A DNA stretch of 40,186 nt, from positions 1 to 40,186 of the IMG/VR virus record IMGVR_UViG_2728369554_000009; one strand, 5' to 3'. Below are positions 5,100-36,801 of the stretch, piece after piece. Origin of the DNA: a virus. Taxonomy: Duplodnaviria; Heunggongvirae; Uroviricota; Caudoviricetes. The notes below the pieces were generated by a model that saw only the letters and a list, made by a program, of their open reading frames with translations, was not told the DNA's origin and did no database searches. Position 1 is the stretch's first letter. Each line of letters opens with the position of its first letter. A program made the translations under genes and the position numbers.

Positions 5100-5684
5100 T
5101 TATTGTTTGTTTTTTTCGTTCTGGCTGATGACAAATTCAATGTAACTTTCGATCTTTGCCTTCTCTGTTTCGGGTAACAATGCGTAGCGCGAGCGGTCAT
5201 AGTTGATAGTCGCAGGGTCGTGCGGGTGAATCAGTAATTCATAGCCGTGACGCCCGAATGCGGATGCAACATTCTCCAGGGTGGAAATGGAAACGCTGAC
5301 CTCATTGTTTAACAGGCGGCTGATTGTCACCTGGGCGACGCCGGATGCGCGGTGAAGTTTTCCCTGTGTTGAAAGGTAGCGGCTTTCGCTCATCCAGCGT
5401 TCCAGGTTGTGAGCCGCCAGCTGACCAATGTCGCTTGGGCCGACAGGCTGAAAACCTTCCTGAGAAAGCGAGCGATCGATATCAAGCCAGTTACGGGGTT
5501 TATTGGCGGCAGCTTCAATTTTTCGCGCAACCTGGTCGCCGATAACCTTCTTGCCAAGAGCCCAGCGGTTTACCAGATTTGCCTGAGTTCCAAGTTTTTC
5601 TGCCATCCGCGTCTGAACACCATTGAATTCACGGTCGATCAAGTCGTTGAGATTTTGCCTGCGGACGTCCTGGATACTTTTCAT
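5100..5684 (-). CDS. Prophage repressor with two HTH domains and no S24/LexA-like cleavage domain
   Basis: 194 aa. There are two XRE-type HTH segments (TRMAEKLGTQANLVNRWALGKK and LHRASGVAQVTISRLLNN). It is divergent from the Cro-like gene across a three-operator region. No Ala-Gly/Ser-Lys autocleavage module is visible. Confidence 0.75.
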   Translation of the reverse strand: MKSIQDVRRQNLNDLIDREFNGVQTRMAEKLGTQANLVNRWALGKKVIGDQVARKIEAAANKPRNWLDIDRSLSQEGFQPVGPSDIGQLAAHNLERWMSESRYLSTQGKLHRASGVAQVTISRLLNNEVSVSISTLENVASAFGRHGYELLIHPHDPATINYDRSRYALLPETEKAKIESYIEFVISQNEKNKQ

Positions 5685-10121: not shown

Positions 10122-10452
10122 ATCAGCAGCAGAGCGCAAAGCCGCTCAGAGAGCCAGACAAGCTGCATCTGGTGTGCGTAAGCTGGAGATTGTGCTTGAT
10201 GCTCAGGAAATTGAAATGCTTGAGCGGAACTGCGCCGCCCGGCGCCCTGGTCGCGATCCCTATGAAATGGCCGAGTACATCGCGCTGCTGATCCGCCAGG
10301 ATGATGCACGTGTGCGCGGGCGTATAAAATCGATCAGCAGAAAACTTTGCGGTAAGTGCGGCGAGAGAGTTCCCGTTAATTCATGCCCGTGTAATGGTGA
10401 CTCGCAATGCTGGGTGACTAAAGGCTGGCATGAAACGAAATTAATAGTGTGA
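10114..10452 (+). CDS. Cys-rich basic protein and possible late regulator. It is the last gene before the terminator and terminase genes.
   Basis: 112 aa. Cysteine cluster: CGKCGERVPVNSCPCNGDSQC. The function is inferred from position only. Confidence 0.45.
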   Translation: MAKSAAERKAAQRARQAASGVRKLEIVLDAQEIEMLERNCAARRPGRDPYEMAEYIALLIRQDDARVRGRIKSISRKLCGKCGERVPVNSCPCNGDSQCWVTKGWHETKLIV

Positions 10453-10460
10453 CATGTCAC
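10449..10460. repeat. 12-bp palindrome GTGACATGTCAC, copy 1
   Basis: Exact sequence. It overlaps the stop of the 10114-10452 gene. Confidence 0.8.
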
Positions 10461-10501
10461 GAGTAGATTATGCATGATGAATTTGATGGGTTTTGAATAC
10501 T

Positions 10502-10527
10502 GCCGCCAACTATGGCGGCTTTATTTT
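10502..10527 (+). terminator. Intrinsic terminator between the early-right genes and the terminase genes
   Basis: Hairpin gccgcca-acta-tggcggc followed by tttatttt. Confidence 0.75.
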
Positions 10528-10530
10528 GCA

Positions 10531-10566
10531 TGGTACTATTACCACAACGGTAACTATTACCACGGT
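10531..10566 (+). repeat. Two direct repeats GGTA(A)CTATTACCAC spaced 18 bp apart, just upstream of terS
   Basis: tggtactattaccac / ggtaactattaccac. Each holds the GGTA/TACC half-site words in reversed order. Confidence 0.6.
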
Positions 10567-10570
10567 GGTT

Positions 10571-11167
10571 ATGATGCCTGCTGAACCTAAAACCTATAAA
10601 CGCAAATCAACGCAATTTAAGCCACTAACAGCAATGCAGGAGGCTTATTGCCAGTCATACATCAAAACGCCTGAAAACCAGACTCAGGCAGCGATTAACG
10701 CAGGATTCTCCCCAAATACAGCGGCAGTTAAAGCCAGTGTCATGATGCGCGATGAACGCATTCAAAAACGGATTGCCGAGTTGATGGAGGAGCGCAACAA
10801 ACGAATGCGCGTCAGTGCTGATTACGTTCTCATGCGCCTGGTGGAGATCGACCAGATGGACGTGATCGACATCCTCAACGACGATGGGAGCCTTAAGCCA
10901 ATCCGCGAGTGGCCGAAAATCTGGCGCACTACGCTTAGCGGCTTTGATCTGTCATCGACCATCATGAACATGAACGAGGATTCGATAGAGACAATCCTCA
11001 AAAAAATTAAATGGCCTGACAAGGTGAAGAACCTCGAACTGATTGGTAAGCACGTCGACGTCAAAGCATTCAAAGAACGCCTGGATGTTAATGTGAATGT
11101 GACAATTGCTGATCGCATAGCAGCAGCCAGGAAGCGACTCAAAGAACGTCAGGATGGTAATCAGTGA
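10571..11167 (+). CDS. terS: Terminase small subunit
   Basis: The start was moved to the ATG at 10571 (MMPAEPK). QEAYCQSYIKTPENQTQAAINAGFSPNTAAVKASVMMRDERIQKRI is the Terminase_2-type HTH segment. Confidence 0.75.
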   Translation: MMPAEPKTYKRKSTQFKPLTAMQEAYCQSYIKTPENQTQAAINAGFSPNTAAVKASVMMRDERIQKRIAELMEERNKRMRVSADYVLMRLVEIDQMDVIDILNDDGSLKPIREWPKIWRTTLSGFDLSSTIMNMNEDSIETILKKIKWPDKVKNLELIGKHVDVKAFKERLDVNVNVTIADRIAAARKRLKERQDGNQ

Positions 11168-12639
11168 CAGATACAGTGTTATCTCCTGAAGAGCAGTTGA
11201 TCGAGGATATTGCAGGGTTTACTCACGATCCGCTTGGTTATGCCCTCTATGCGTTCCCGTGGGGGGAAGAGGGGACTGAACTGGCACATGCTACTGGCCC
11301 ACGTCAGTGGCAGGCTGATGCGTTCCGAGAGATACGTGATCACCTGCAGAATCCAGAGACGCGCTATCAGCCGCTTATGCTGGCACGCGCTTCTGGTCAC
11401 GGTATTGGTAAATCCGCATTCATCTCAATGCTGATCAACTGGGGCATGTCCACTTGCGAGGATTGTAAGGTCGTGGTGACCGCCAACACCGACAACCAGC
11501 TACGAACGAAGACCTGGCCGGAAATTATCAAGTGGTCGAACCTTGCTATCACGGAAGACTGGTTTACCTGTACCGCTACCGCGATGTACAGCAATGACCC
11601 TGGGCACGACAAGCGGTGGCGTGCTGACGCAATACCCTGGTCTGAGCACAACACTGAGGCGTTCGCCGGACTACACAACGAGCGCAAACGCATCATCGTG
11701 GTGTTTGATGAAGCGTCGAACATTGCGGATCTGGTGTGGGAAGTTGCTGAGGGTGCGCTTACGGACGAAGACACTGAGATTATCTGGGTGGCGTTCGGAA
11801 ACCCGACGCGTAATACCGGACGTTTCCGTGAATGTTTCCGCAAGTATAAACACCGCTGGAAAACTGCGCAGATTGACAGTCGGACGGTGGAAGGTACCAA
11901 CAAACAGCAGTTGCAGAAATGGGTTGATGACTACGGGGAAGACAGCGACTTCGTTAAAATCCGTGTGCGTGGCATATTCCCTGATGCATCTGAATTGCAG
12001 TTTATCCCTACCGGTCTTACTGACGAGGCAATGAAACGGGTGGTAACCGCTGCGCAGGTTGCACATGCTCCGGTGATAATCGGCGTTGACCCGGCATACT
12101 CCGGCGTTGATGACGCTGTGATATACCTGCGGCAGGGGCTACACAGTAAGGTGCTGTGGACTGGCAACAAGACTACCGACGATCTGATTATGGCGAAGCG
12201 TATCGCTGACTTTGAAGACCAGTATCAGGCTGACGCGGTGTTCATCGACTTCGGTTACGGAACCGGTTTGAAGTCAATCGGTGACGGCTGGGGTCGTACA
12301 TGGCAACTTGTTCCGTTCGGTGGCGCGTCTACTGACCCGCAGATGCTTAACAAGCGTGGGGAGATGTTCAACTCATGTAAGACATGGCTGAGGCTGGGCG
12401 GCATGCTGGATGACCAGGAAACTGCAGACGACCTGTCGGCGGCAGAGTACAAAGTTCGCGTGGACGGTAAAATCGTTATCGAACCGAAGGAGGATATCAA
12501 GGAGCGGCTTGGGCGTTCGCCGGGTAAAGGCGATGCGCTACTGCTGACGTTTGCGTTCCCTGTGTCGAAGCGTCTGCGAATTCCCGGTCAGCAGAACCAG
12601 CAAGGCAAGGCCATCACAGATTACGATCCCTATGCTTAA
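11164..12639 (+). CDS. terL: Terminase large subunit
   Basis: 491 aa. GTG start overlapping the terS stop. It has a Walker-A-like ARASGHGIGKS and a later VVFDEAS (Walker B) motif. Confidence 0.9.
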   Translation: MTDTVLSPEEQLIEDIAGFTHDPLGYALYAFPWGEEGTELAHATGPRQWQADAFREIRDHLQNPETRYQPLMLARASGHGIGKSAFISMLINWGMSTCEDCKVVVTANTDNQLRTKTWPEIIKWSNLAITEDWFTCTATAMYSNDPGHDKRWRADAIPWSEHNTEAFAGLHNERKRIIVVFDEASNIADLVWEVAEGALTDEDTEIIWVAFGNPTRNTGRFRECFRKYKHRWKTAQIDSRTVEGTNKQQLQKWVDDYGEDSDFVKIRVRGIFPDASELQFIPTGLTDEAMKRVVTAAQVAHAPVIIGVDPAYSGVDDAVIYLRQGLHSKVLWTGNKTTDDLIMAKRIADFEDQYQADAVFIDFGYGTGLKSIGDGWGRTWQLVPFGGASTDPQMLNKRGEMFNSCKTWLRLGGMLDDQETADDLSAAEYKVRVDGKIVIEPKEDIKERLGRSPGKGDALLLTFAFPVSKRLRIPGQQNQQGKAITDYDPYA

Positions 12640-12689
12640 TCCGCTGGTGGGGATAATATCGTTGATATCCTCTGGTGAGGATAAAACAA

Positions 12690-12713
12690 AGCCAGCTCAT
12701 AGGCTGGCTGTTT
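12690..12713. terminator. Bidirectional terminator between terL and the reverse-strand cassette
   Basis: Hairpin agccagc-tcatag-gctggct, flanked by aaaacaaa on one side and gttt on the other. Confidence 0.65.
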
Positions 12714-12725
12714 GTGACATGTCAC
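12714..12725. repeat. 12-bp palindrome GTGACATGTCAC, copy 2
   Basis: Exact sequence directly abutting the terminator. Confidence 0.8.
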
Positions 12726-12729
12726 GGTG

Positions 12730-13062
12730 TTATTTCGGTAGATTGTGTTTGGCATTCGACTCGTCTATCACGTAACGCATTGCAGTTCGACCGAGATTAC
12801 CAGGATCTTCATGCAGACTCACTCGTGCCTTTAGGAGCACACATTCAGCCTTGACATAGTTTGCTGGAATTATTCCTACCTCGGCATTTTTAAATGCCTC
12901 CTTCACCGCCTCACCGTTGTACTGACCGCCAAGCAACTCTGTACATGTCAGGTTGTTATGGATAATTGCAAGGAGATCTTTAATCTCTTCACGCAGGTTT
13001 ACAATCGCCATCGCGGCATTGATAGCTGCGGCATAGCGCTCAGCTGCAGTCTTCTCTTTCAT
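12730..13062 (-). CDS. Orphan hypothetical protein (110 aa) opposing the late operon
   Basis: The start MKEKTAAERY lies behind AAGGTGA. The 142-aa extension would run through a terminator hairpin. No family recognised. Confidence 0.55.
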   Translation of the reverse strand: MKEKTAAERYAAAINAAMAIVNLREEIKDLLAIIHNNLTCTELLGGQYNGEAVKEAFKNAEVGIIPANYVKAECVLLKARVSLHEDPGNLGRTAMRYVIDESNAKHNLPK

Positions 13063-13073
13063 GATTTTCACCT

Positions 13074-13099
13074 TAAAAAAATGCCCGGACGAACCGGGC
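13074..13099 (-). terminator. Intrinsic terminator 12 nt upstream of the Shine-Dalgarno of the 110-aa gene
   Basis: Minus-strand gcccgg-ttcgt-ccgggc followed by attttttt. Confidence 0.7.
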
Positions 13100-13141
13100 G
13101 AATGATCAACGGAGTGCCTTCCTTGGCGGGTGATGCAGGGT

Positions 13142-13357
13142 TTACAGCGCAACGTCATCGGAATGGCGTTCTGCTGTAAAAAGGGCGGTGGTCAGAAGAA
13201 GGAGAACTGCCACCGCCAAAGCTACACGCATTGCCTGGTACTGCCGTATCACGGTCCTAACGTGATTGGGTTGTGGTGGCCGGTGCTGATCTCCGGCTTG
13301 AAATATGCTCAGTGTTAGCTGCCACTCTCTCAAGAGGATATGCGTCATGATTTTCAC
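13142..13357 (-). CDS. Possible small membrane peptide. It is 71 aa from the GTG, or 29 aa (MRVALAVAVLLLLTTALFTAERHSDDVAL) from the internal ATG.
   Basis: It has a hydrophobic C-terminal helix and its own downstream terminator. The ribosome-binding sites are weak. Confidence 0.3.
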   Translation of the reverse strand: MKIMTHILLREWQLTLSIFQAGDQHRPPQPNHVRTVIRQYQAMRVALAVAVLLLLTTALFTAERHSDDVAL

Positions 13358-13386
13358 TGAGTTTGTTGGGTAACCCTGACTTCCGG

Positions 13387-13740
13387 CTATTCACGCAGCT
13401 TGTCTTCCAACTCAGGCTTATGCCTTACCCATTCCCCCACGTTCACGGGGTGCGCATCAGCCTGCGCATTCACCACAACGGAAAGAGCACTGACTTCGAG
13501 CAGACCTTGGGCCCAGGAACGACGATCAATCTCAATGCTCTTACCTGTTGCATCCTCGTCTCTTCCGAGGTGTCACACCTGATCGCCGGGATGGTGAATC
13601 CCCGTGCGCGGAATAAAACCGCTCGACTTGCACATTCCGGCTACCTGGTTCGTTTGCCCGAGCAAGGGAGGGTGCCCCTTAAACGTATCCAGACCGCTAT
13701 CGGCGCATGTGCCATACGCCGTACTGCTCAAAATAAAAGC
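13387..13740 (-). pseudogene. Decayed reading frame with an in-frame TGA (13573-13575) and no convincing start
   Basis: The minus-strand translation ..GFIPRTGIHHPGDQV*HLGRDEDATGKSIEIDRRSWAQGLLEVSALSVVVNAQADAHPVNVGEWVRHKPELEDKLRE* looks protein-like but is interrupted. Confidence 0.3.
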
Positions 13741-13803
13741 TCACTCCACCTGTTCAATTTAACGACAAGCCAGTCAGGTTAGTAACCGGAATGAACTCTT
13801 TGG

Positions 13804-13818
13804 TTACCTGAAAGGTAA
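13804..13818. promoter_or_regulatory. Perfect TTACC-N5-GGTAA operator ahead of the structural operon
   Basis: ttacctgaaaggtaa, 90 bp upstream of the first structural ORF. Confidence 0.55.
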
Positions 13819-13908
13819 TAATTTGTGCGTTAAATGTCAACTACCTACGATAAATAAATCATATGTGGTTAAATTGGTAATAATTTAATTGCGTACGGAG
13901 TCATTGAT

Positions 13909-14115
13909 ATGTGCATGGGTAGCTCACCATCAGTGCCTGCAACACCAGAAGTTCAGGCAGCACCACAGGAGCAGGATGCCGCCGTTGTTGATGCCCGCGA
14001 CGAAGAAACTCGTCGCCGTCGCGCTGCTGCTGGTCGTAGTTCTACGCTGCTTACCGGTTCTCAGGGTGACACATCAACCGCTAATACCAGCGGTAAAACG
14101 CTGCTTGGTCAGTAA
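13909..14115 (+). CDS. Small conserved head-module protein (68 aa)
   Basis: A GGAG Shine-Dalgarno lies 9 nt upstream, and the same ggagtcattga-atg context precedes the portal gene. The RRRRAAAGRSSTLLTG motif recurs upstream of portals in related podoviruses, from memory. Confidence 0.55.
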   Translation: MCMGSSPSVPATPEVQAAPQEQDAAVVDARDEETRRRRAAAGRSSTLLTGSQGDTSTANTSGKTLLGQ

Positions 14116-14129
14116 CCGGAGTCATTGAA

Positions 14130-15809
14130 ATGGCGGAAACAACTAAAGAGCGATTGAACAAACAGTTCGCACAACTTGAAAGCGAGCGTCAGTCGTTCGA
14201 GCCGCACTGGCGCGAGTTGAGTGATTACATCAACCCGCGTGGTTCCCGCTTTCTGACTTCTGAGGTCAACCGTAACGATCGACGCAATACACGCATTATT
14301 GATTCGACCGGGACTATGGCGGCGCGCACTCTCGCCAGCGGCATGATGTCAGGCATCACAAGCCCCGCGCGTCCGTGGTTTCGCCTGGCTACGCCAGATC
14401 CTGAAATGATGGATTATGGCCCTGTTAAGTTGTGGCTTGAGGCGGTGCAGAACCGCATGAACGATATGTTCAATAAGTCGAATCTCTATCAGTCGCTGCC
14501 GCAGTTATACGGAAGCCTCGGCACATACAGCACTGGTGCAATGGCAGTGCTGGAGGATGACGAGGACATCATTCGCACAATGCCATTCCCGATAGGCAGT
14601 TACTACCTGGCTAACTCACCTCGTGGCAGTGTGGACACCTGTTTTCGCAAGTTCTCTATGACTGTTCGTCAGCTTGTTCAGGAGTTCGGGCTAAATAACG
14701 TCAGCGAATCCGTAAAAAGCATGTGGGAAAGCGGCACCTACGAGAAGTGGATTGAAGTGATGCATTCGGTTTACCCGAACATTGACCGCGATACATCGAA
14801 GCTGGATAGCAAGAACAAGCCATTCAAATCGGTTTATTACGAGGTTGGTGGCGATAACGACAAGTTGTTGCGTGAGTCCGGATTCGATGAGTTTCCAATT
14901 ATGGCTCCGAGCTGGGAAGTTAACGGCGAAGATGTTTATGGATCATCATGCCCGGGTATGCTGGCGCTTGGACCTGTTAAGGCATTGCAGCTTCTCCAGA
15001 AGCGCAAGTCGCAGTTGATTGATAAAGCCACCAATCCGCCGATGGTTGCTCCGACTTCCCTCAAGAATCAGCGTGCCTCCCTTCTTCCTGGCGACATCAC
15101 GTATATCGATCAGATTACTGGTCAGGATGGTTTCAGGCCTGCTTATCTGGTTAACCCCAGTACAGCAGATTTGGTGGCAGACATTCAGGACACCCGTCAA
15201 ATCATTAACAGCGCCTACTTTGTCGATCTGTTCATGATGTTGCAGAACATCAATACCCGCTCGATGCCTGTTGAAGCGGTGATCGAAATGAAAGAAGAAA
15301 AACTTCTGATGTTGGGGCCGGTTCTGGAGCGTCTGAACGACGAATGTCTTAATCCTCTCATTGACCGCGCTTTCTCGATGATGGTGCGTAAAAACATGCT
15401 GCCGCCACCGCCTGACGCGATGGAAGGTATGCCCCTGAAGGTCGAATACATTTCCGTCATGGCTCAGGCGCAGAAGTCTATCGGCCTGTCCAGTCTGGCG
15501 TCCACGGTTAACTTCATTGGTCAACTTGCGCAAGCGAAACCAGAAGCTCTCGACAAACTCAACGTTGATCAGGCGATCGATGCATTCGCTGATATGTCCG
15601 GAGTGTCTCCAACCGTCATTGTTCCGCAGGAACAGGTTGAGCAGGCTCGCCAGCAACGGGCACAGCAACAACAGCAGCAACAAATGATGGCGATGGGGAT
15701 GGCGGCGGCACAGGGTGCCAAGACGCTAAGCGAAGCTAAAACTTCGGATCCGAGTGTTTTGTCAGCTATGGCGAATGCAGTTAGTGGTCAGGGTGGGCAA
15801 TCACAATGA
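14130..15809 (+). CDS. Portal protein
   Basis: 559 aa. Its position after the terminase genes, its size and a Q-rich C-terminal tail fit podovirus head-tail connector proteins. Confidence 0.85.
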   Translation: MAETTKERLNKQFAQLESERQSFEPHWRELSDYINPRGSRFLTSEVNRNDRRNTRIIDSTGTMAARTLASGMMSGITSPARPWFRLATPDPEMMDYGPVKLWLEAVQNRMNDMFNKSNLYQSLPQLYGSLGTYSTGAMAVLEDDEDIIRTMPFPIGSYYLANSPRGSVDTCFRKFSMTVRQLVQEFGLNNVSESVKSMWESGTYEKWIEVMHSVYPNIDRDTSKLDSKNKPFKSVYYEVGGDNDKLLRESGFDEFPIMAPSWEVNGEDVYGSSCPGMLALGPVKALQLLQKRKSQLIDKATNPPMVAPTSLKNQRASLLPGDITYIDQITGQDGFRPAYLVNPSTADLVADIQDTRQIINSAYFVDLFMMLQNINTRSMPVEAVIEMKEEKLLMLGPVLERLNDECLNPLIDRAFSMMVRKNMLPPPPDAMEGMPLKVEYISVMAQAQKSIGLSSLASTVNFIGQLAQAKPEALDKLNVDQAIDAFADMSGVSPTVIVPQEQVEQARQQRAQQQQQQQMMAMGMAAAQGAKTLSEAKTSDPSVLSAMANAVSGQGGQSQ

Positions 15810-16102
15810 CAGATTACGAAGACGATCAACTGAAAGAAGAAAACGCCCGTAAGCAACGTGACATGGCACAGCGTGAAATTGATGACATTTGCTTTGTCAT
15901 GAGCAGTGAACAGGGGCGTCGCGTTGTCTGGTCGGTGCTGGAGAAAGGCCGTGTGTTTTCCGCTATCTCACCGATGGACGCTATGGCAATGGCATTTAAT
16001 GAGGGGCAACGCAATCTGGCGCTGGAACTGTTTCAGCGCGTTATGGCGCATTGCCCTGAACAGTATTTGAAGATGGCCAAAGAGGCCAGTGAACAGGAGT
16101 GA
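15806..16102 (+). CDS. Hypothetical head-assembly protein (98 aa)
   Basis: ATGA overlap with the portal gene. Acidic N-terminus. Confidence 0.6.
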   Translation: MTDYEDDQLKEENARKQRDMAQREIDDICFVMSSEQGRRVVWSVLEKGRVFSAISPMDAMAMAFNEGQRNLALELFQRVMAHCPEQYLKMAKEASEQE

Positions 16103-31021: not shown

Positions 31022-31033
31022 GTGACATGTCAC
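31022..31033. repeat. 12-bp palindrome GTGACATGTCAC, copy 3
   Basis: Exact sequence directly abutting the terminator at 31034-31058. Confidence 0.8.
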
Positions 31034-33681: not shown

Positions 33682-36600
33682 ATGACGGTCTCAACCGAAG
33701 TTGACCACAACGAATACACCGGTAACGGCGTTACGACATCGTTTCCGTATACTTTTCGAATTTTCAGAAAATCAGACCTGGTTGTTCAGGTGTCTGACCT
33801 GAACGGAAACGTAACAGAATTGGTTCTGGATACCGGTTATACGGTAACTGGGGCGGGCACTTATAGTGGCGGTTCTGTGGTTCTTCCGTCTCCGCTTGCT
33901 ACTGGATGGCGAATTACGATAGATCGTGTGCTTGATGTAGTGCAGGAGACAGACCTTCGCAATCAGGGAAAATTTTTCCCCGAAGTGCATGAAGATGCCT
34001 TTGACTACCTGACGATGCTGATCCAGCAATGTTTTGGGTGGTTCAGACGTGCATTGATGAAACCATCTTTGCTTGCAAAATATTACGATGCAAAGCAAAA
34101 CAAAATTTCTAACCTTGCAGATCCATCATTTGAGCAGGACGCTGTAAATAATCGCTCAATGCGTAATTATGTCGATGCTGCAATCGCCGGGGTTGTTGGT
34201 GGTTTTGGTTGGTTTATTCAGTATGGTTCTGGGGCTGTGTACCGAACGTTCCAGGATAAAATGCGTGATGCTATTAGCCCCAAAGATTTTGGAGCTGTTG
34301 GTGATGGTATAAATGACGATTCCACTGCAATAAGCGCGTGCCTTGAAGCCTCATCTCCAGGTTATAAAATTGACGGATTAGGGCTTACTTTTAAAGTATC
34401 AACTCTTCCGGATGTCAGTCGATTTAAAAATGCTCGTTTTTTATTTGAGAGAATACCGGGCCAGCCTCTTTTTTATGCTTCTGAAGATTTTATCCAGGGA
34501 GAGTTATTTAAAATTACAGATACACCGTGGTACAACGCCTGGACGCAGGATAAAACGTTTGTATATGACAATGTCATCTATGCGCCTTTTATGGCTGGAG
34601 ACCGCCATGGTGTAAATAACCTCCATGTTGCATGGGTTCGCTCAGGAGATGACGGGAAGACCTGGACAACGCCGGAATGGCTTACAGATTTACATGAAAA
34701 CTATCCCACAGTTAACTATCACTGCATGAGTATGGGGGTTGTCAGAAATCGCCTTTTTGCTGTAATTGAGACGCGGACCGTGAGCGGAAATAAACTGCAG
34801 GTTGCAGAGTTGTGGGATCGCCCAATGAGTCGCAGCCTTCGCGTTTATGGTGGTATAACGAAAGCAGCAAATCAGCAAGTCGCTTATATTCGCATTACTG
34901 ATCACGGATTATTTGCTGGTGATTTTGTCAACTTCTCAAACTCTGGTGTTACAGGTGTTACCGGGAATATGACGGTGACTACTGTTATTGATAAAAATAC
35001 TTTTACAGTTACGACGCAAAATACCCAGGATGTGGATCAGAATAACGAGGGTAGATACTGGAGTTTTGGTACATCATTTCACTCGTCACCATGGAGAAAA
35101 ACCAGTCTTGGAACTATTCCTTCTTTTGTTGACGGAAGCACTCCTGTTACTGAGATTCACAGTTTTGCGACGATTAGCGATAACAGTTTTGCTGTTGGCT
35201 ACCATAATGGTGATATTGGTCCACGCGAGCTTGGGATACTCTATTTCTCTGATGCTTTCGGTTCTCCTGGTAGCTTTATTCGCAGACGCATACCTGCAGA
35301 ATATGAGGCGAATGCATCTGAGCCATGTGTAAAATATTATGATGGCATTCTGTATCTGACGACCAGGGGGACATTAAGTACTCAACCCGGTAGTTCATTG
35401 CACAGAAGCTCTGATTTAGGTACATCATGGAATTCTCTTCGCTTCCCAAATAATGTTCATCACTCAAACCTTCCTTTTGCCAAAGTTGGCGATGAGCTGA
35501 TTATTTTTGGCAGTGAGCGCGCATTTGGTGAGTGGGAAGGAGGAGAACCTGATAACCGTTATGCAGGAAATTATCCAAGAACATTTATGACCAGAGTTAA
35601 CGTCAATGAGTGGAGTCTGGATAATGTAGAGTGGGTTAATGTTACTGATCAGATTTATCAGGGCGGAATAGTTAACTCTGCGGTTGGTGTTGGTTCAGTT
35701 TGTATCAAAGACAACTGGCTGTACTACATTTTCGGTGGGGAAGACTTTCTAAACCCATGGAGCATAGGGGATAACAACAGAAAATATCCTTATGTTCACG
35801 ATGGTCACCCGGCTGATTTATATTGTTTCAGGGTGAAAATCAAACAGGAAGAATTTGTTTCAAGGGATTTTGTCTACGGAGCCACTCCTAACAGAACGCT
35901 TCCTACTTTTATGTCGACGTCAGGCGTGAGGACGGTTCCTGTACCCGTTGATTTCACAGATGATGTTGCCGTCCAGTCACTGACTGTCCATGCAGGTACA
36001 TCAGGACAAGTTCGCGCGGAAGTCAAACTTGAGGGTAATTACGCCATTATTGCGAAGAAAGTACCGTCTGATGATGTTACCGCTCAGAGATTAATCGTTA
36101 GCGGCGGTGAAACAACGTCTTCAGCAGATGGTGCAATGATAACGTTGCATGGTTCCGGAAGCAGTACTCCACGTCGCGCGGTATATAACGCACTCGAACA
36201 TCTTTTTGAGAACGGAGATGTTAAACCTTATCTTGATAATGTAAATGCTCTTGGTGGTCCGGGAAACAGGTTCTCGACAGTTTATCTTGGCTCCAATCCT
36301 GTGGTTACCAGTGACGGAACATTAAAGACAGAGCCGGTCTCTCCTGACGAAGCATTGCTGGATGCCTGGGGTGACGTCAGGTATATCGCTTATAAATGGC
36401 TGAACGCTGTCGCTATAAAGGGGGAAGAAGGGGCGAGGATACATCATGGTGTAATCGCGCAGCAACTTCGTGATGTTCTTATTTCTCACGGACTCATGGA
36501 AGAAGAAAGCACAACATGCCGCTATGCCTTTCTTTGCTATGACGATTATCCCGCAGTATATGATGACGTCATTACTGGCCAAAGGGAAATGCCGCTGACT

Positions 36601-36801
36601 GATAATGAAGGGAGCATCATTGTTGATGAGGATGATAATCCAGTGATGGTAATGGAAGACATCATTGAGCGCGTTGAAATAACGCCAGCAGGATCTAGAT
36701 GGGGGGTCAGACCTGATCTCTTATTCTATATCGAGGCAGCATGGCAGCGCAGAGAAATGGATAAGATAAAAGAGCGGATTCAGTCTCTGGAAGAACGTTA
36801 A
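33682..36801 (+). CDS. Tailspike: conserved N-terminal particle-binding domain, Asp-box (sialidase-like) central domain, and a C-terminal intramolecular chaperone (peptidase S74-type) domain
   Basis: 1039 aa. Asp-boxes are SGDDGKTW and SSDLGTSW. The GAVGDGINDDSTAI motif is present. The C-terminal VVTSDGTLKTE...HHGVIAQQL matches the S-D-x-x-x-K autocleavage region, with Ser877 at 36310-36312. Confidence 0.85.
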   Translation: MTVSTEVDHNEYTGNGVTTSFPYTFRIFRKSDLVVQVSDLNGNVTELVLDTGYTVTGAGTYSGGSVVLPSPLATGWRITIDRVLDVVQETDLRNQGKFFPEVHEDAFDYLTMLIQQCFGWFRRALMKPSLLAKYYDAKQNKISNLADPSFEQDAVNNRSMRNYVDAAIAGVVGGFGWFIQYGSGAVYRTFQDKMRDAISPKDFGAVGDGINDDSTAISACLEASSPGYKIDGLGLTFKVSTLPDVSRFKNARFLFERIPGQPLFYASEDFIQGELFKITDTPWYNAWTQDKTFVYDNVIYAPFMAGDRHGVNNLHVAWVRSGDDGKTWTTPEWLTDLHENYPTVNYHCMSMGVVRNRLFAVIETRTVSGNKLQVAELWDRPMSRSLRVYGGITKAANQQVAYIRITDHGLFAGDFVNFSNSGVTGVTGNMTVTTVIDKNTFTVTTQNTQDVDQNNEGRYWSFGTSFHSSPWRKTSLGTIPSFVDGSTPVTEIHSFATISDNSFAVGYHNGDIGPRELGILYFSDAFGSPGSFIRRRIPAEYEANASEPCVKYYDGILYLTTRGTLSTQPGSSLHRSSDLGTSWNSLRFPNNVHHSNLPFAKVGDELIIFGSERAFGEWEGGEPDNRYAGNYPRTFMTRVNVNEWSLDNVEWVNVTDQIYQGGIVNSAVGVGSVCIKDNWLYYIFGGEDFLNPWSIGDNNRKYPYVHDGHPADLYCFRVKIKQEEFVSRDFVYGATPNRTLPTFMSTSGVRTVPVPVDFTDDVAVQSLTVHAGTSGQVRAEVKLEGNYAIIAKKVPSDDVTAQRLIVSGGETTSSADGAMITLHGSGSSTPRRAVYNALEHLFENGDVKPYLDNVNALGGPGNRFSTVYLGSNPVVTSDGTLKTEPVSPDEALLDAWGDVRYIAYKWLNAVAIKGEEGARIHHGVIAQQLRDVLISHGLMEEESTTCRYAFLCYDDYPAVYDDVITGQREMPLTDNEGSIIVDEDDNPVMVMEDIIERVEITPAGSRWGVRPDLLFYIEAAWQRREMDKIKERIQSLEER

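Follow-up and report, generated by a model that had tools for sequence, protein, structure and literature searches.

An accessory locus with exchangeable protein and RNA cassettes between the terminase and portal genes of epsilon15/phiV10-type phages

RESULTS

Organization of the terL-portal junction

The window (the whole stretch of DNA that was analysed, 40,186 nucleotides) is a prophage of E. coli and belongs to the epsilon15/phiV10 type (Uetakevirus). Between its terminase and portal genes, 1269 bp separate the stop codon of terL from the start of a gp3-like gene. The features of this block and its borders are as follows.

10493-11167, terS (PF03592)
11164-12639, terL
12690..12709, terminator hairpin AGCCAGC-TCATAG-GCTGGCT, called on the minus strand, with the tail TTGTTTTATC
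12714-12725, palindrome GTGACATGTCAC, left edge of the conserved frame; the exchanged protein cassette starts right after it
13062->12730, minus strand, 110-aa ORF (phrog_27507) with the RBS AAGGTGA; the protein cassette
13074->13068, minus strand, RBS AAGGTGA, directly before the cassette ATG
13099->13083, minus strand, hairpin T2 GCCCGGTTCGTCCGGGC, followed by T7 (13081->13075)
13100..13177, minus strand, conserved untranslated segment between T1 and T2, ACAGCAGAACGCCATTsCGATGAC..GCTGTAAACC...GCCAAGGAAGGCAC
13217->13184, minus strand, hairpin T1 GGCGGTGGCAG...CTGACCACCGCC, followed by C and T5 (13182->13178)
13231->13142 (13357->13142 from a GTG start), minus strand, short hydrophobic ORF (MRVALAVAVLLLLTTALFTAERHSDDVAL), with the T2 hairpin (13099->13083) and T7 downstream
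13479->13270, minus strand, tRNA-like structured RNA of 210 nt, which replaces the tRNA-Arg(UCU) gene of relatives
13480..13545, minus strand, spacer hairpin GGTAAGAGCA...TGCTCTTTCC, a predicted fold immediately 5' of the RNA element
13546..13803, minus strand, leader RNA module of the leftward unit, 98% identical to phiV10
13804-13818, operator-like palindrome TTACCTGAAAGGTAA, TTACC-N5-GGTAA, ahead of gp3
13812..13840, minus strand, candidate leftward promoter read from the sequence: TTGACA (13840->13835), 17 nt, TACCTT (13817->13812)
13823..13851, plus strand, candidate rightward promoter for gp3-portal read from the sequence: TTGTGC (13823-13828), 17 nt, TACGAT (13846-13851)
13909-14115, plus strand, gp3-like 68-aa ORF (phrog_831), which opens the rightward structural block, with the portal gene next
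14130-15809, portal (PF12236, E 2e-186)

An earlier note on this DNA had described terL and the portal gene as split by this block, and all of the sequence features that it listed were recovered at its coordinates. The block does lie between the two genes, but it is not their sole separator, since the gp3-like gene intervenes too. The idea of a separate accessory module, on the reverse strand and with terminators of its own, was borne out. Of the properties expected of a moron, the block has a terminator of its own and a content that varies among close relatives; as for a promoter of its own, TTGACA-17-TACCTT can be read in the sequence, where the consensus scan was silent.

The hairpin at 12690..12709 terminates the leftward module and probably terL as well; the homologous hairpin in the phiV10 record is annotated as a plus-strand terminator, and the segment is 95% identical to phiV10. 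The adjacent palindrome GTGACATGTCAC is present in three exact copies in the window (10449, 12714, and 31022) against 0.06 expected, with the copies at 12714 and 31022 adjoining terminator hairpins and the copy at 10449 about 40 nt from one. T1, whose distal stem covaries in phiV10 (GGCGGTGATGG/CTATCACCGCC), is the terminator of the RNA gene. It resembles the terminator of the DicF sRNA (RF00039); however, the match scores 25.7 bits, where the gathering score is 48, stems from the T1 hairpin, and leaves the 5' seed region of DicF unmatched in the window. A comparable weak match follows another copy of the RNA element (locus L158), and the likeness is probably that of one terminator to another. 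The untranslated segment at 13100..13177 contains long invariant runs in the window, a Klebsiella phage, phiV10, and epsilon15, and could be a leader or attenuator of the protein cassette. The T2/T7/RBS segment (13068..13099) forms the right edge of the exchanged cassette.

The frame is conserved in all relatives examined and its contents are exchanged

The earlier note had suggested looking for alternative cargo at this junction in related phages. We found it: our survey of 82 junctions, most of them with portals at least 99% identical, contains at least eight different protein cassettes in junctions of 819 to 1982 bp. Every relative examined, down to epsilon15 and the Klebsiella and Enterobacter phages (DNA identity of about 70-80%), carries a reverse-strand module with its non-coding frame between terL and gp3-portal. 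The motif GGGCATTTTTT occupies a near-fixed position in 79 of the 82 junctions, and the "empty" alleles (819-820 bp) still have the frame and the tRNA. None of the 82 junctions has terL directly abutting gp3-portal without a remnant of the frame. In the window, the non-coding frame comprises the post-terL terminator, T1, the invariant spacer, T2 with its T-run, and the RBS. Exchange boundaries are sharp and fall at 12734/12735 and 13067/13068 for the protein cassette and at 13190/13191 and 13533/13534 for the RNA.

The two reference phages illustrate this further. In epsilon15 (AY150271.2) and phiV10 (NC_007804.2), the terL-portal region holds a module in the same position and the same reverse orientation as in the window, with a terminator after terL, a hairpin and T-run before the reverse gene, and an operator before gp3; the phiV10 flanks are 95-98% identical to those of the window. 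The cargo, in contrast, differs. phiV10 carries a PF13876 (Acb4-family) protein and tRNA-Arg(UCU), and epsilon15 a PF13876 protein with the RNA gene absent, whereas the window carries the 110-aa protein of another family and the tRNA-like element. Because every relative examined has the reverse-strand module, we conclude that the module is ancestral, which rules against a recent insertion, and that its contents are exchanged between conserved non-coding frames.

The protein slot holds immune-signal sponges or uncharacterised proteins

Across the 82 junctions, the protein slot is either empty or filled by a sponge of the Acb4 family (PF13876) or of the Tad2-like type (PF11195) or by one of several unknown proteins. 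PF13876 is the family of the Acb4 anti-CBASS sponge and PF11195 that of Tad2 (10.1101/2024.12.30.630793; 10.1101/2025.07.12.664507). The Acb4-type cassette occupies 38 loci and the Tad2-like one a single locus (L017, 1.9e-24). Another cassette encodes a protein of 281-292 aa, whose sequence by inspection resembles a membrane and coiled-coil protein and whose Pfam and PADLOC matches are all weak, below threshold. Further uncharacterised alleles encode a 127-140-aa family and proteins of 99 and 115 aa.

The allele of the window encodes the 110-aa protein, whose gene had been taken for an orphan. Instead, it matches phrog_27507, with 15 close clusters, all in the same slot, and 45 distant representatives, across which length and motifs are kept; the family is small but real. 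An AlphaFold model made after an HMM search had widened the family reached a pLDDT of 95.6 and supersedes one built with 13 close homologs only (pLDDT 50). As to the start codon, an upstream in-frame ATG at 13158 (142-aa ORF) was rejected, since the extension is not conserved and phiV10 has a stop.

Acb4, Tad2, and the 110-aa protein are all short (about 100-125 aa), and in close relatives the two sponges sit in exactly the slot of the 110-aa protein, with the 5' UTR and 3' flank in common. Sponges of the Acb4 family are homo-tetramers that bind cyclic oligonucleotides. The protein itself, in contrast, does not match the two sponges by HMM, profile-profile comparison, or fold. It has no Pfam match, either to the PF13876 or to the PF11195 HMM; hhalign against Acb4 (PF13876) gave a probability of 0.15%; and the predicted fold has no significant match among solved structures, Acb4 and Tad2 included. 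PADLOC and a tblastn search of deposited phage genomes returned no match to the 110-aa protein either. Judged from its slot position only, it may be considered a candidate immune-evasion protein. Other slot cassettes, such as the 281-aa one, could equally be prophage-expressed defence genes.

The RNA slot of the window holds a structured, tRNA-like element

The RNA slot is occupied by tRNA-Arg(UCU) in 80 of the 82 junctions; the window and epsilon15 lack this tRNA. In the window, its place is taken by the RNA element, which has the same 5' and 3' flanking sequences as the replaced tRNA-Arg and is built from the following parts, all on the minus strand.

13479->13471 / 13278->13270, closing stem, acceptor-like
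13468->13451, D-like hairpin with the loop GGCUGA
13450->13298, variable core of 153 nt
13297->13279, T-like hairpin with the loop AGAUCAGCA

The element belongs to an RNA family that we gathered by exact matches to its own conserved hairpins; counted as such matches, the family is present in more than 150 viral contigs, and its 5' part in 139 deposited phage genomes, virulent ones included. The 3' hairpin accompanies the 5' 22-mer in each of the 118 instances of the latter, 109 of which form at least six contiguous closing pairs. The conserved parts are all intact in the window element, with 0 mismatches in the 22-mer.

Covariation was assessed over 88 distinct scaffolds. We found that 93.4% of cells are paired, against 28-53% in slid controls, and that both sides change in 14 of the 19 pairs. 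Compensatory cells number 154, against 46.7±5 in shuffles, with 0 of 500 shuffles reaching the observed value. The acceptor-type stem, contiguous with a T-type hairpin, and the D-type hairpin are supported by covariation (helices 87.5%, 99.3%, and 98.2% paired, with 6, 5, and 3 compensatory pairs). Folding energies of single copies lie only modestly below those of shuffles (z about -1.5). Where tRNA genes are neighbours, the element shares their strand (39 cases, with 0 in the opposite orientation). Of 144 copies, 41 have a terminator within the next 250 nt, compared with 6 of 144 for the antisense control. In lambdoid phages, the element is located after Q, in the leader between Q and the holin, or downstream of cI.

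The likeness to tRNA lies in several features. The closing stem of 7-9 bp is stacked directly on a 5-bp T-like hairpin, the D-like hairpin begins 2 nt after the closing strand, and one loop has an invariant GG and the other an invariant UC, as in the tRNA elbow; moreover, the element matches real tRNA genes in genomic slot, flanks, and orientation. Unlike a tRNA, it has no anticodon arm, but a hypervariable domain of 24 to about 200 nt at that place, its T-like loop has 9 nt, and its 3' end is not consistently CCA (3' of the closing stem, the window has ACCC and HK620 has GCCA). Nor is it recognized as a cloverleaf by ARAGORN or RF00005. ARAGORN found no tRNA in the window in default, intron, or lowered-threshold runs, the output at the 70% threshold being noise. 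Scans of the block, and of 13230-13830 at E<=10, against Rfam 15 gave no family at the element, their matches to DicF, RyhB, CcsR1, and ftsZ-DE being weak, chance-level, and driven by terminator hairpins. The scan of 15 other element-bearing loci at E<=0.1 likewise gave no family at the element; the Rfam tRNA model produced one partial match (locus L175).

One comparison among tRNA-like non-coding RNAs is with the bacterial YrlA Y RNAs (PMC4201824), in which the tRNA-like domain is internal, unlike the topology of the element. The YrlA gene adjoins Ro60, whereas a Ro60-like gene was not found among the window ORFs examined, which are part of the set, and no Y-RNA-like Rfam match was obtained in the window (E<=10) or in the 15 other loci (E<=0.1). 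A literature search with the element sequences gave no match, and a keyword search for tRNA-like phage RNAs returned YrlA and plant-virus tRNA-like structures only. In the engineered "tRNA scaffold", used to express recombinant RNAs in E. coli, a foreign RNA takes the position of the anticodon arm and owes its processing and stability to the tRNA body. This laboratory design serves as a working analogy for the element, whose processing and stabilisation are hypothetical.

Upstream, the spacer hairpin has a putatively boxA-like 3' strand (TGCTCTTT). The hairpin matches, at 80%, a gap without annotation in the phAPEC8 tRNA array, and the spacer module also follows an element in locus L220. The core of the leader (13722->13546) is common to P1 (between trnI and ban), cdtI, PhiR63_1, SopranoGao, BUCT554, and Klebsiella phages, with invariant blocks and eight predicted pairs that show compensatory change (nine sequences).

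The hydrophobic ORF and the ORF-poor stretch reflect structured RNA

Two parts of the block invite simpler explanations. The short hydrophobic ORF MRVALAVAVLLLLTTALFTAERHSDDVAL, with its hydrophobic core and a terminator downstream, could be taken for a membrane peptide akin to type I toxins and followed by a terminator of its own. However, the hydrophobic run is encoded by both arms of a GC-rich hairpin with a T5 run next to it, i.e., the ORF listed in the earlier note is a translation of T1 and not a gene. Its frame and start codon are not kept in relatives: the ATG lies inside an 8-nt insertion specific to the window, a 2-nt loop indel in phiV10 shifts the frame, and the changes in the phiV10 stem are compensatory at the RNA level. 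Given also the lack of any family match, we regard a toxin peptide as very improbable. As for the stretch of about 400 bp in which no intact ORF had been seen, the absence of ORFs stands, as 13360-13800 contains no credible one. The only long ORF there (139 aa, TTG start, plus strand) was rejected, with no Pfam or NCBIfam match and a negligible PHROG match (E 0.031). This could suggest that 13270-13800 is functionless decayed sequence, such as tRNA-gene remnants or a dead ORF, in keeping with the tRNA-negative ARAGORN result, the empty Rfam result, and a variable core unique to two E. coli genomes (searched against E. coli, this core showed similarity in the same two prophages only). Yet the window element is intact, its family covaries strongly, and the leader, nearly identical to that of phiV10, is conserved with compensatory changes across unrelated phages. 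The stretch is a conserved structured RNA, and decay is scarcely credible as an account of it.

An operator-like site overlaps the candidate leftward promoter

The pattern TTACC-N5-GGTAA occurs in the window in 12 exact copies, or 15 when one mismatch is allowed, where 0.8 would be expected, and paired copies flank an HTH_3 repressor-like ORF at 5100-5684. The operator proposed for the right border of the block gains support from epsilon15, in whose GenBank record the homologous TTACCTAAAAGGTAA is annotated "repressor". At 13804-13818, the site covers the -10 hexamer of the candidate leftward promoter, a layout found also in locus L239. This candidate has a weak -10 (TACCTT) below the threshold of the consensus scan, which did not report the rightward candidate (13823..13851) either. 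With promoter matches near 13.8 kb that are consensus-level only, we infer from the sequence that the leftward and rightward promoters may be in use.

DISCUSSION

We consider it likely, with a probability of roughly 0.7, that the block is an accessory locus of all epsilon15/phiV10-type phages, transcribed leftward from an operator-covered promoter, with protein and RNA slots that are swapped independently and with a presumed role in counter-defence or host takeover. This reading builds on the observed architecture, the exchange of cassettes, the identity of the cargo in relatives, and the conserved structure of the RNA; promoter use, timing, and the functions of both RNA and protein are its predicted parts. 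Judging by position only, a repressor-controlled counter-defence locus is the most likely role.

In such a locus, the block would be read leftward, against the packaging and structural genes, most likely from a promoter whose -10 is under one of the dispersed TTACC-N5-GGTAA copies. The transcript would run through the structured leader, the spacer hairpin, the RNA slot, T1, and the untranslated segment ending in T2, and then through the RBS, the protein slot, and the palindrome to the terminator shared with terL. Protein and RNA slots would be exchanged independently by recombination in the conserved frames. The locus would be turned on upon infection or the lifting of repression, and its RNA would be made and trimmed in the fashion of a tRNA, with the variable domain doing specific work, for example by binding to, or imitating, an RNA or protein of the host or of a defence system. 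Against this reading, two terminators lie between the candidate leftward promoter, with its weak -10 hexamer, and the 110-aa gene.

Two other accounts of the block have to be weighed against this one. The earlier note saw a reverse-strand insertion that splits the terminase and portal genes. Read as a recent moron in an otherwise contiguous terL-portal operon of this phage, it would fit the reversed orientation, the block's own terminators, its rare cargo (the exact block is found in 2 of 5426 complete E. coli genomes), and near-identical backbones that differ in cargo. However, all relatives have the leader, T1, T2, RBS, palindrome, and terminator, among them epsilon15 and the phages of Klebsiella and Enterobacter, and even the "empty" alleles retain frame and tRNA; the allele is recent, the split is not, and we regard an insertion into a once-contiguous pair as quite unlikely. 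Somewhat less unlikely, though still improbable, is a moron for lysogenic conversion or prophage defence, in which prophage expression of the 110-aa protein and the RNA would benefit the lysogen, for example through superinfection exclusion, abortive infection, or host regulation. The layout is typical of a moron, one alternative cassette is the 281-292-aa protein that looks like a membrane and coiled-coil protein, and the lambdoid RNA element lies downstream of cI or between Q and holin. In lambda, the regions downstream of cI and after Q can be transcribed in lysogens (from pRM and pR'). Against this account, the one plausible leftward promoter has its -10 overlapped by the operator, the most frequent cassettes are phage counter-defence sponges (Acb4 and Tad2), virulent phages carry the RNA element too, and the 110-aa protein has no PADLOC match.

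Within the preferred reading of an exchangeable counter-defence locus, we tentatively offer a bolder proposal, which we think has the odds against it. The RNA element would represent a previously undescribed, widespread class of phage RNA, in which a tRNA-type body, produced in a tRNA-like manner, presents a hypervariable domain that acts as a decoy, sponge, or guide against host RNAs or RNA-targeting defences. Its 110-aa neighbour would be a new protein for immune evasion that can take the place of Acb4 and Tad2.

For the phage family, the locus is a natural "swap slot". Its known alleles are immune-signal sponges, and therefore its uncharacterised alleles form a short ranked list of immune-evasion candidates, namely the 110-aa family, the 127-140-aa family, and the 99-aa and 115-aa proteins, for which the near-identical backbone suits isogenic tests. 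The RNA family is present in more than 100 deposited phage genomes, both temperate and virulent, where it is almost never annotated and sometimes lies under spurious small ORFs. The "hypothetical proteins" annotated over the region, such as phiV10p04 (over the tRNA) and the tiny ORFs of Klebsiella phage Magnus, are probably not genes. The conserved tRNA-shaped frame around a hypervariable core suggests a target-specific function, and if the RNA is produced and trimmed as tRNAs are, it would constitute a new class of phage RNA effector.

The terL-portal junction is an ancestral slot with exchangeable protein cargo

The genes and DNA flanking the block match podophages of the epsilon15/phiV10 type (genus Uetakevirus). 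The E. coli BCE049 chromosome contains a stretch with 100% identity to the block itself, and strain C6 one with 99.4%; among 5426 complete E. coli genomes no other carries it entire. Other products encoded in the window are an integrase, an antirepressor of the P22 type and an endosialidase tailspike; given the tailspike (PF12217), the K1 polysialic-acid capsule is probably the target of this epsilon15-type prophage.

Genes of the window
5100-5684, minus, HTH_3 repressor-like gene
10493-11167, terS (PF03592)
11164-12639, terL
13909-14115, gp3-like ORF, 68 aa
14130-15809, portal (PF12236, E 2e-186)
33682-36801, plus, endosialidase tailspike (PF12217, E 3e-233)

The earlier note had described the block as an insertion; its observation was correct, as all the features it listed were found in the sequence, and its interpretation was partly right. 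A reverse-strand module occupies the same terL/gp3-portal position in phiV10, O157 typing phage 9, epsilon15, a Klebsiella prophage-derived phage, Enterobacter phage BUCT554 and several Klebsiella oxytoca or metagenomic prophages. The block thus occupies an ancestral slot and did not arise as an insertion.

Window compared with phiV10
12400-12734, shared, 95%
12735-13067, replaced; protein gene, from stop to start codon
13068-13190, shared, 81%
13191-13533, replaced; tRNA-Arg region
13534-14200, shared, 98%

We surveyed 80 viral contigs with portal identity of at least 99%, and cut the terL-gp3 junction from 82 sequences in total. The junctions are 819 to 1982 bp long. A minus-strand tRNA-Arg(UCU) is present in all 82 except epsilon15 and the window, and hairpin T2 is found in 79 of the 82, nearly always at an equal offset, with the variation in the protein gene (the cassette) lying downstream of it. 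The comparison across related phages that the earlier note had proposed thus bears out its accessory module with alternative cargo.

Cassettes at the surveyed junctions
112-135-aa family, 38 loci
127-140-aa family, 17 loci
281-292-aa family, 11 loci (17 including related forms)
98-aa protein, 1 locus
115-aa protein, present
99-aa protein, present
110-aa protein, the window and two compared loci (L028, L092)
Empty slot, 4 loci

Since the 110-aa gene occurs together with a tRNA in L028 and L092, the RNA and protein slots are exchanged independently. The commonest cassette matches PF13876 (E 9e-35), and the 98-aa cassette matches PF11195, "Tad2-like" (E 2e-24). PF13876 corresponds to Acb4, a family of anti-CBASS sponges for cyclic nucleotides, and PF11195 to Tad2 (10.1101/2024.12.30.630793; 10.1101/2025.07.12.664507), so immune-evasion genes make use of this slot. 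Among near-identical Acb4-type PF13876 proteins (loci L013-L092), both the sequence and the length of the segment bounded by YFTA.DG and LLTFCV are hypervariable, which could reflect shifting ligand specificity.

The 110-aa protein is a candidate immune-evasion protein

The 110-aa ORF (13062 to 12730, minus) had been called an orphan. While it has no match in Pfam, NCBIfam or PADLOC, it matches phrog_27507 end to end and has 15 close clusters (identity 61-98%, mostly 105-110 aa), so the label does not hold. A profile search of 1.8 billion representatives gave 45 relatives of ~100-115 aa, with conserved positions R-Y, NLT..E, AF, YVK and LH; two more distant members that were looked up both lie at the same slot in related prophages. 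With the widened family alignment, AlphaFold2 predicts (pLDDT 95.6) an N-terminal helix of 32 residues followed by an alpha-beta-beta-beta-alpha unit. Profile comparison gives no relation to the Acb4 cassette. Its slot position makes the protein a candidate for immune evasion.

Terminators and a conserved leader frame both slots

Elements of the non-coding frame
12690-12709, terminator hairpin; the homologous phiV10 hairpin is annotated as a terminator
12714-12725, palindrome GTGACATGTCAC; 3 exact copies against 0.06 expected
13480-13545, minus, spacer hairpin GGTAAGAGCA...TGCTCTTTCC, between leader and RNA element

Exact copies of GTGACATGTCAC lie at 10449-10460, just past the stop of the ORF preceding terS; at 12714-12725, 4 nt beyond the terL terminator; and at 31022-31033, immediately ahead of a terminator hairpin, GGCCGCtttcGCGGCC plus T-run. 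A one-mismatch copy is at 15858. The palindrome may be a marker of operon boundaries or a regulator-binding site.

A four-phage minus-strand alignment makes the conserved frame visible. Hairpin T1 (GGCGGTGGCAG...CTGACCACCGCC plus T5) comes next after the RNA slot, and its distal stem carries compensatory changes in phiV10; we read it as the terminator of an RNA gene. It is also the source of a weak DicF match (25.7 bits; gathering score, 48). A near-invariant stretch of ~45 nt separates T1 from T2 (GCCCGGTTCGTCCGGGC plus T7), which is followed by AAGGTGA and the cassette ATG. The short hydrophobic ORF of the earlier note is present and is followed by the hairpin at 13099 to 13083 with T7, but we reject it as a gene: its hydrophobic run is the translation of both T1 arms. 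Its ATG lies inside an 8-nt stretch missing from phiV10 and a Klebsiella phage, and in phiV10 a 2-nt indel in the T1 loop shifts the frame while stem pairing is kept.

Upstream of the RNA element, the leader (13722 to 13546) is conserved across several unrelated phages, including P1, where a leader-type module lies between trnI and ban, as well as cdtI, PhiR63_1, SopranoGao, BUCT554 and Klebsiella phages. Across nine leader sequences some blocks are invariant, and compensatory change occurs at 8 predicted pairs. The spacer hairpin matches, at 80% identity, an unannotated gap of 76 nt in the tRNA array of phAPEC8 (1501-1576 of that locus, tRNA-Thr/tRNA-Gly); its 3' strand, GUGCUCUUUCC, presumably resembles the boxA antitermination sequence.

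A tRNA-like RNA with a hypervariable core replaces the tRNA

The stretch reported as ORF-free does hold ~450 bp without a credible ORF, but it is not empty: it contains a structured RNA. The segment replacing the tRNA includes a 40-nt run with 97-100% identity across very different phages.

Parts of the element (minus strand)
13479 to 13471, 5' closing strand GTTGTGGTG (9 nt), then AA
13468 to 13451, hairpin TGCGCA-GGCTGA-TGCGCA
153 nt between the 5' and 3' hairpins, unique core
13297 to 13279, hairpin GCCGG-AGATCAGCA-CCGGC
13278 to 13270, 3' strand CACCACAAC, exact complement of GTTGTGGTG

Exact-match scans of IMG/VR by either conserved hairpin each returned at least 120 stretches. Among the matches listed, each of the 118 instances of the 5' 22-mer is followed by the 3' hairpin at a distance of 66-277 nt, and in 109 of the 118 the closing stem has at least 6 contiguous pairs; its forms include TGTGGTG/CACCACA, TGATGGTG/CACCATCA, GAGGGTG/CACCCTC, GATGCGGTG/CACCGCATC and TGTGTAGGTG/CACCTACACA. 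Instances retrieved by the 3' hairpin carry compensatory 5'-hairpin variants (e.g., GCGAAGG..TTCGC, GCGTAGG..TACGC, GCAAAGG..TTTGC, GTGCAGG..TGCAC). For a covariation test, 88 distinct scaffolds were aligned without gaps, the variable core being reduced to a 4-nt linker. In the three-helix structure 93.4% of cells are paired (28-53% in slid controls), both-sided changes occur in 14 of 19 pairs, and compensatory cells number 154, compared with 46.7±5 in shuffles (0/500 reach 154). In the loops, GGCUGA and UCAG are invariant, and the A and G ahead of them nearly so; judged from sequence, these would allow a GG/UC contact similar to that of the tRNA elbow.

Several observations are evidence that the element functions as an RNA read from this strand. 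Nearby tRNA genes (within 1 kb) are co-oriented (39 same strand, 0 opposite), a terminator-like hairpin follows the element within 250 nt in 41/144 cases versus 6/144 in the antisense control, and element and replaced tRNA-Arg have common flanks (5' ..GCTCT..CGTT, 3' AATCACG..TAGGACCGTGAT). The HK620 copy, located between qut and tQ in the late leader, is 94 nt long with a cloverleaf-like fold and a GCCA end.

The 5' part occurs in 139 deposited phage genomes, almost always unannotated: temperate lambdoid and Stx phages, Uetakevirus, 46-49-kb Klebsiella phages, 72-73-kb E. coli phages (e.g., IME11) and 157-kb Ackermannviridae are included. In lambdoid contigs it lies between Q and holin or downstream of cI. 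It is in 0/80 close relatives of this prophage, and the window's variable core is in BCE049 and C6 only. ARAGORN and Rfam 15 miss the element, and it is without annotation in RefSeq E. coli genomes. This tRNA-shaped RNA with a hypervariable core is the most unusual content of the block; within limited literature and database coverage, we found no paper containing its sequences and no description of it.

Annotations at related loci also deserve mention. In P1, a copy of the tRNA-like element (~2773-2876 of the compared locus, minus strand; ~P1 69816-69919) lies upstream of tciA and antisense to the annotated upl/plp junction, and the small ORF upl may need re-examination. phiV10p04 (2225-2476 of its locus), a "hypothetical protein", is opposite tRNA-Arg, and in Klebsiella phage Magnus (1899-4422 of its locus) a run of 30-60-aa ORFs covers the element region upstream of a tRNA cluster; phiV10p04 and the Magnus ORFs alike are probably annotation artefacts. 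A Uetakevirus-type IMG/VR locus (L239) retains only the 3' hairpin and 3' closing strand, right after promoter and operator, and is an apparent deletion derivative.

A proposed repressor-controlled counter-defence module

Control sites
13804-13818, TTACC-N5-GGTAA operator; 12 exact copies against 0.8 expected
4966, 5028, 5740, 5788, 6125, 8094, 8156, 10539, 10557, 13804, 29423, 30009, 32168, 33183, 33563, sites of this motif in the window
13840 to 13835, minus, perfect TTGACA of candidate leftward promoter; 17 nt, then TACCTT within the operator
13823-13851, plus, candidate gp3-portal promoter TTGTGC-17-TACGAT

The motif at 13804-13818 matches one annotated as a repressor site in the epsilon15 record. 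Its sites are paired around the HTH_3 repressor-like gene and lie ahead of several operons, terS and the tailspike, as well as near the antirepressor gene. Such a spread points to a single repressor acting on many scattered operators across the prophage, the pattern of dispersed operators under one repressor in P1. Neither candidate promoter passed a consensus scan, so both are putative. Both T1 and T2 lie between the candidate leftward promoter and the 110-aa gene.

Short variable domains of the RNA family are mostly one hairpin with a loop of 9-13 nt. One domain (…AGCTAGATGGTGAGGTAATGGCTCACCATGGCGACGACGGGTAG…), from a 118-nt-class IMG/VR element with two variants, resembles what we take to be bacterial 16S rRNA at ~positions 240-290; if this is true, some variable domains mimic host RNAs. 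Altogether, our results show the architecture of the locus and the structure of its RNA; we infer expression timing and the functions of RNA and protein. The reading with the best support is a counter-defence module that pairs an RNA slot with a protein slot; the locus would be read leftward under repressor control, and both slots would serve counter-defence.
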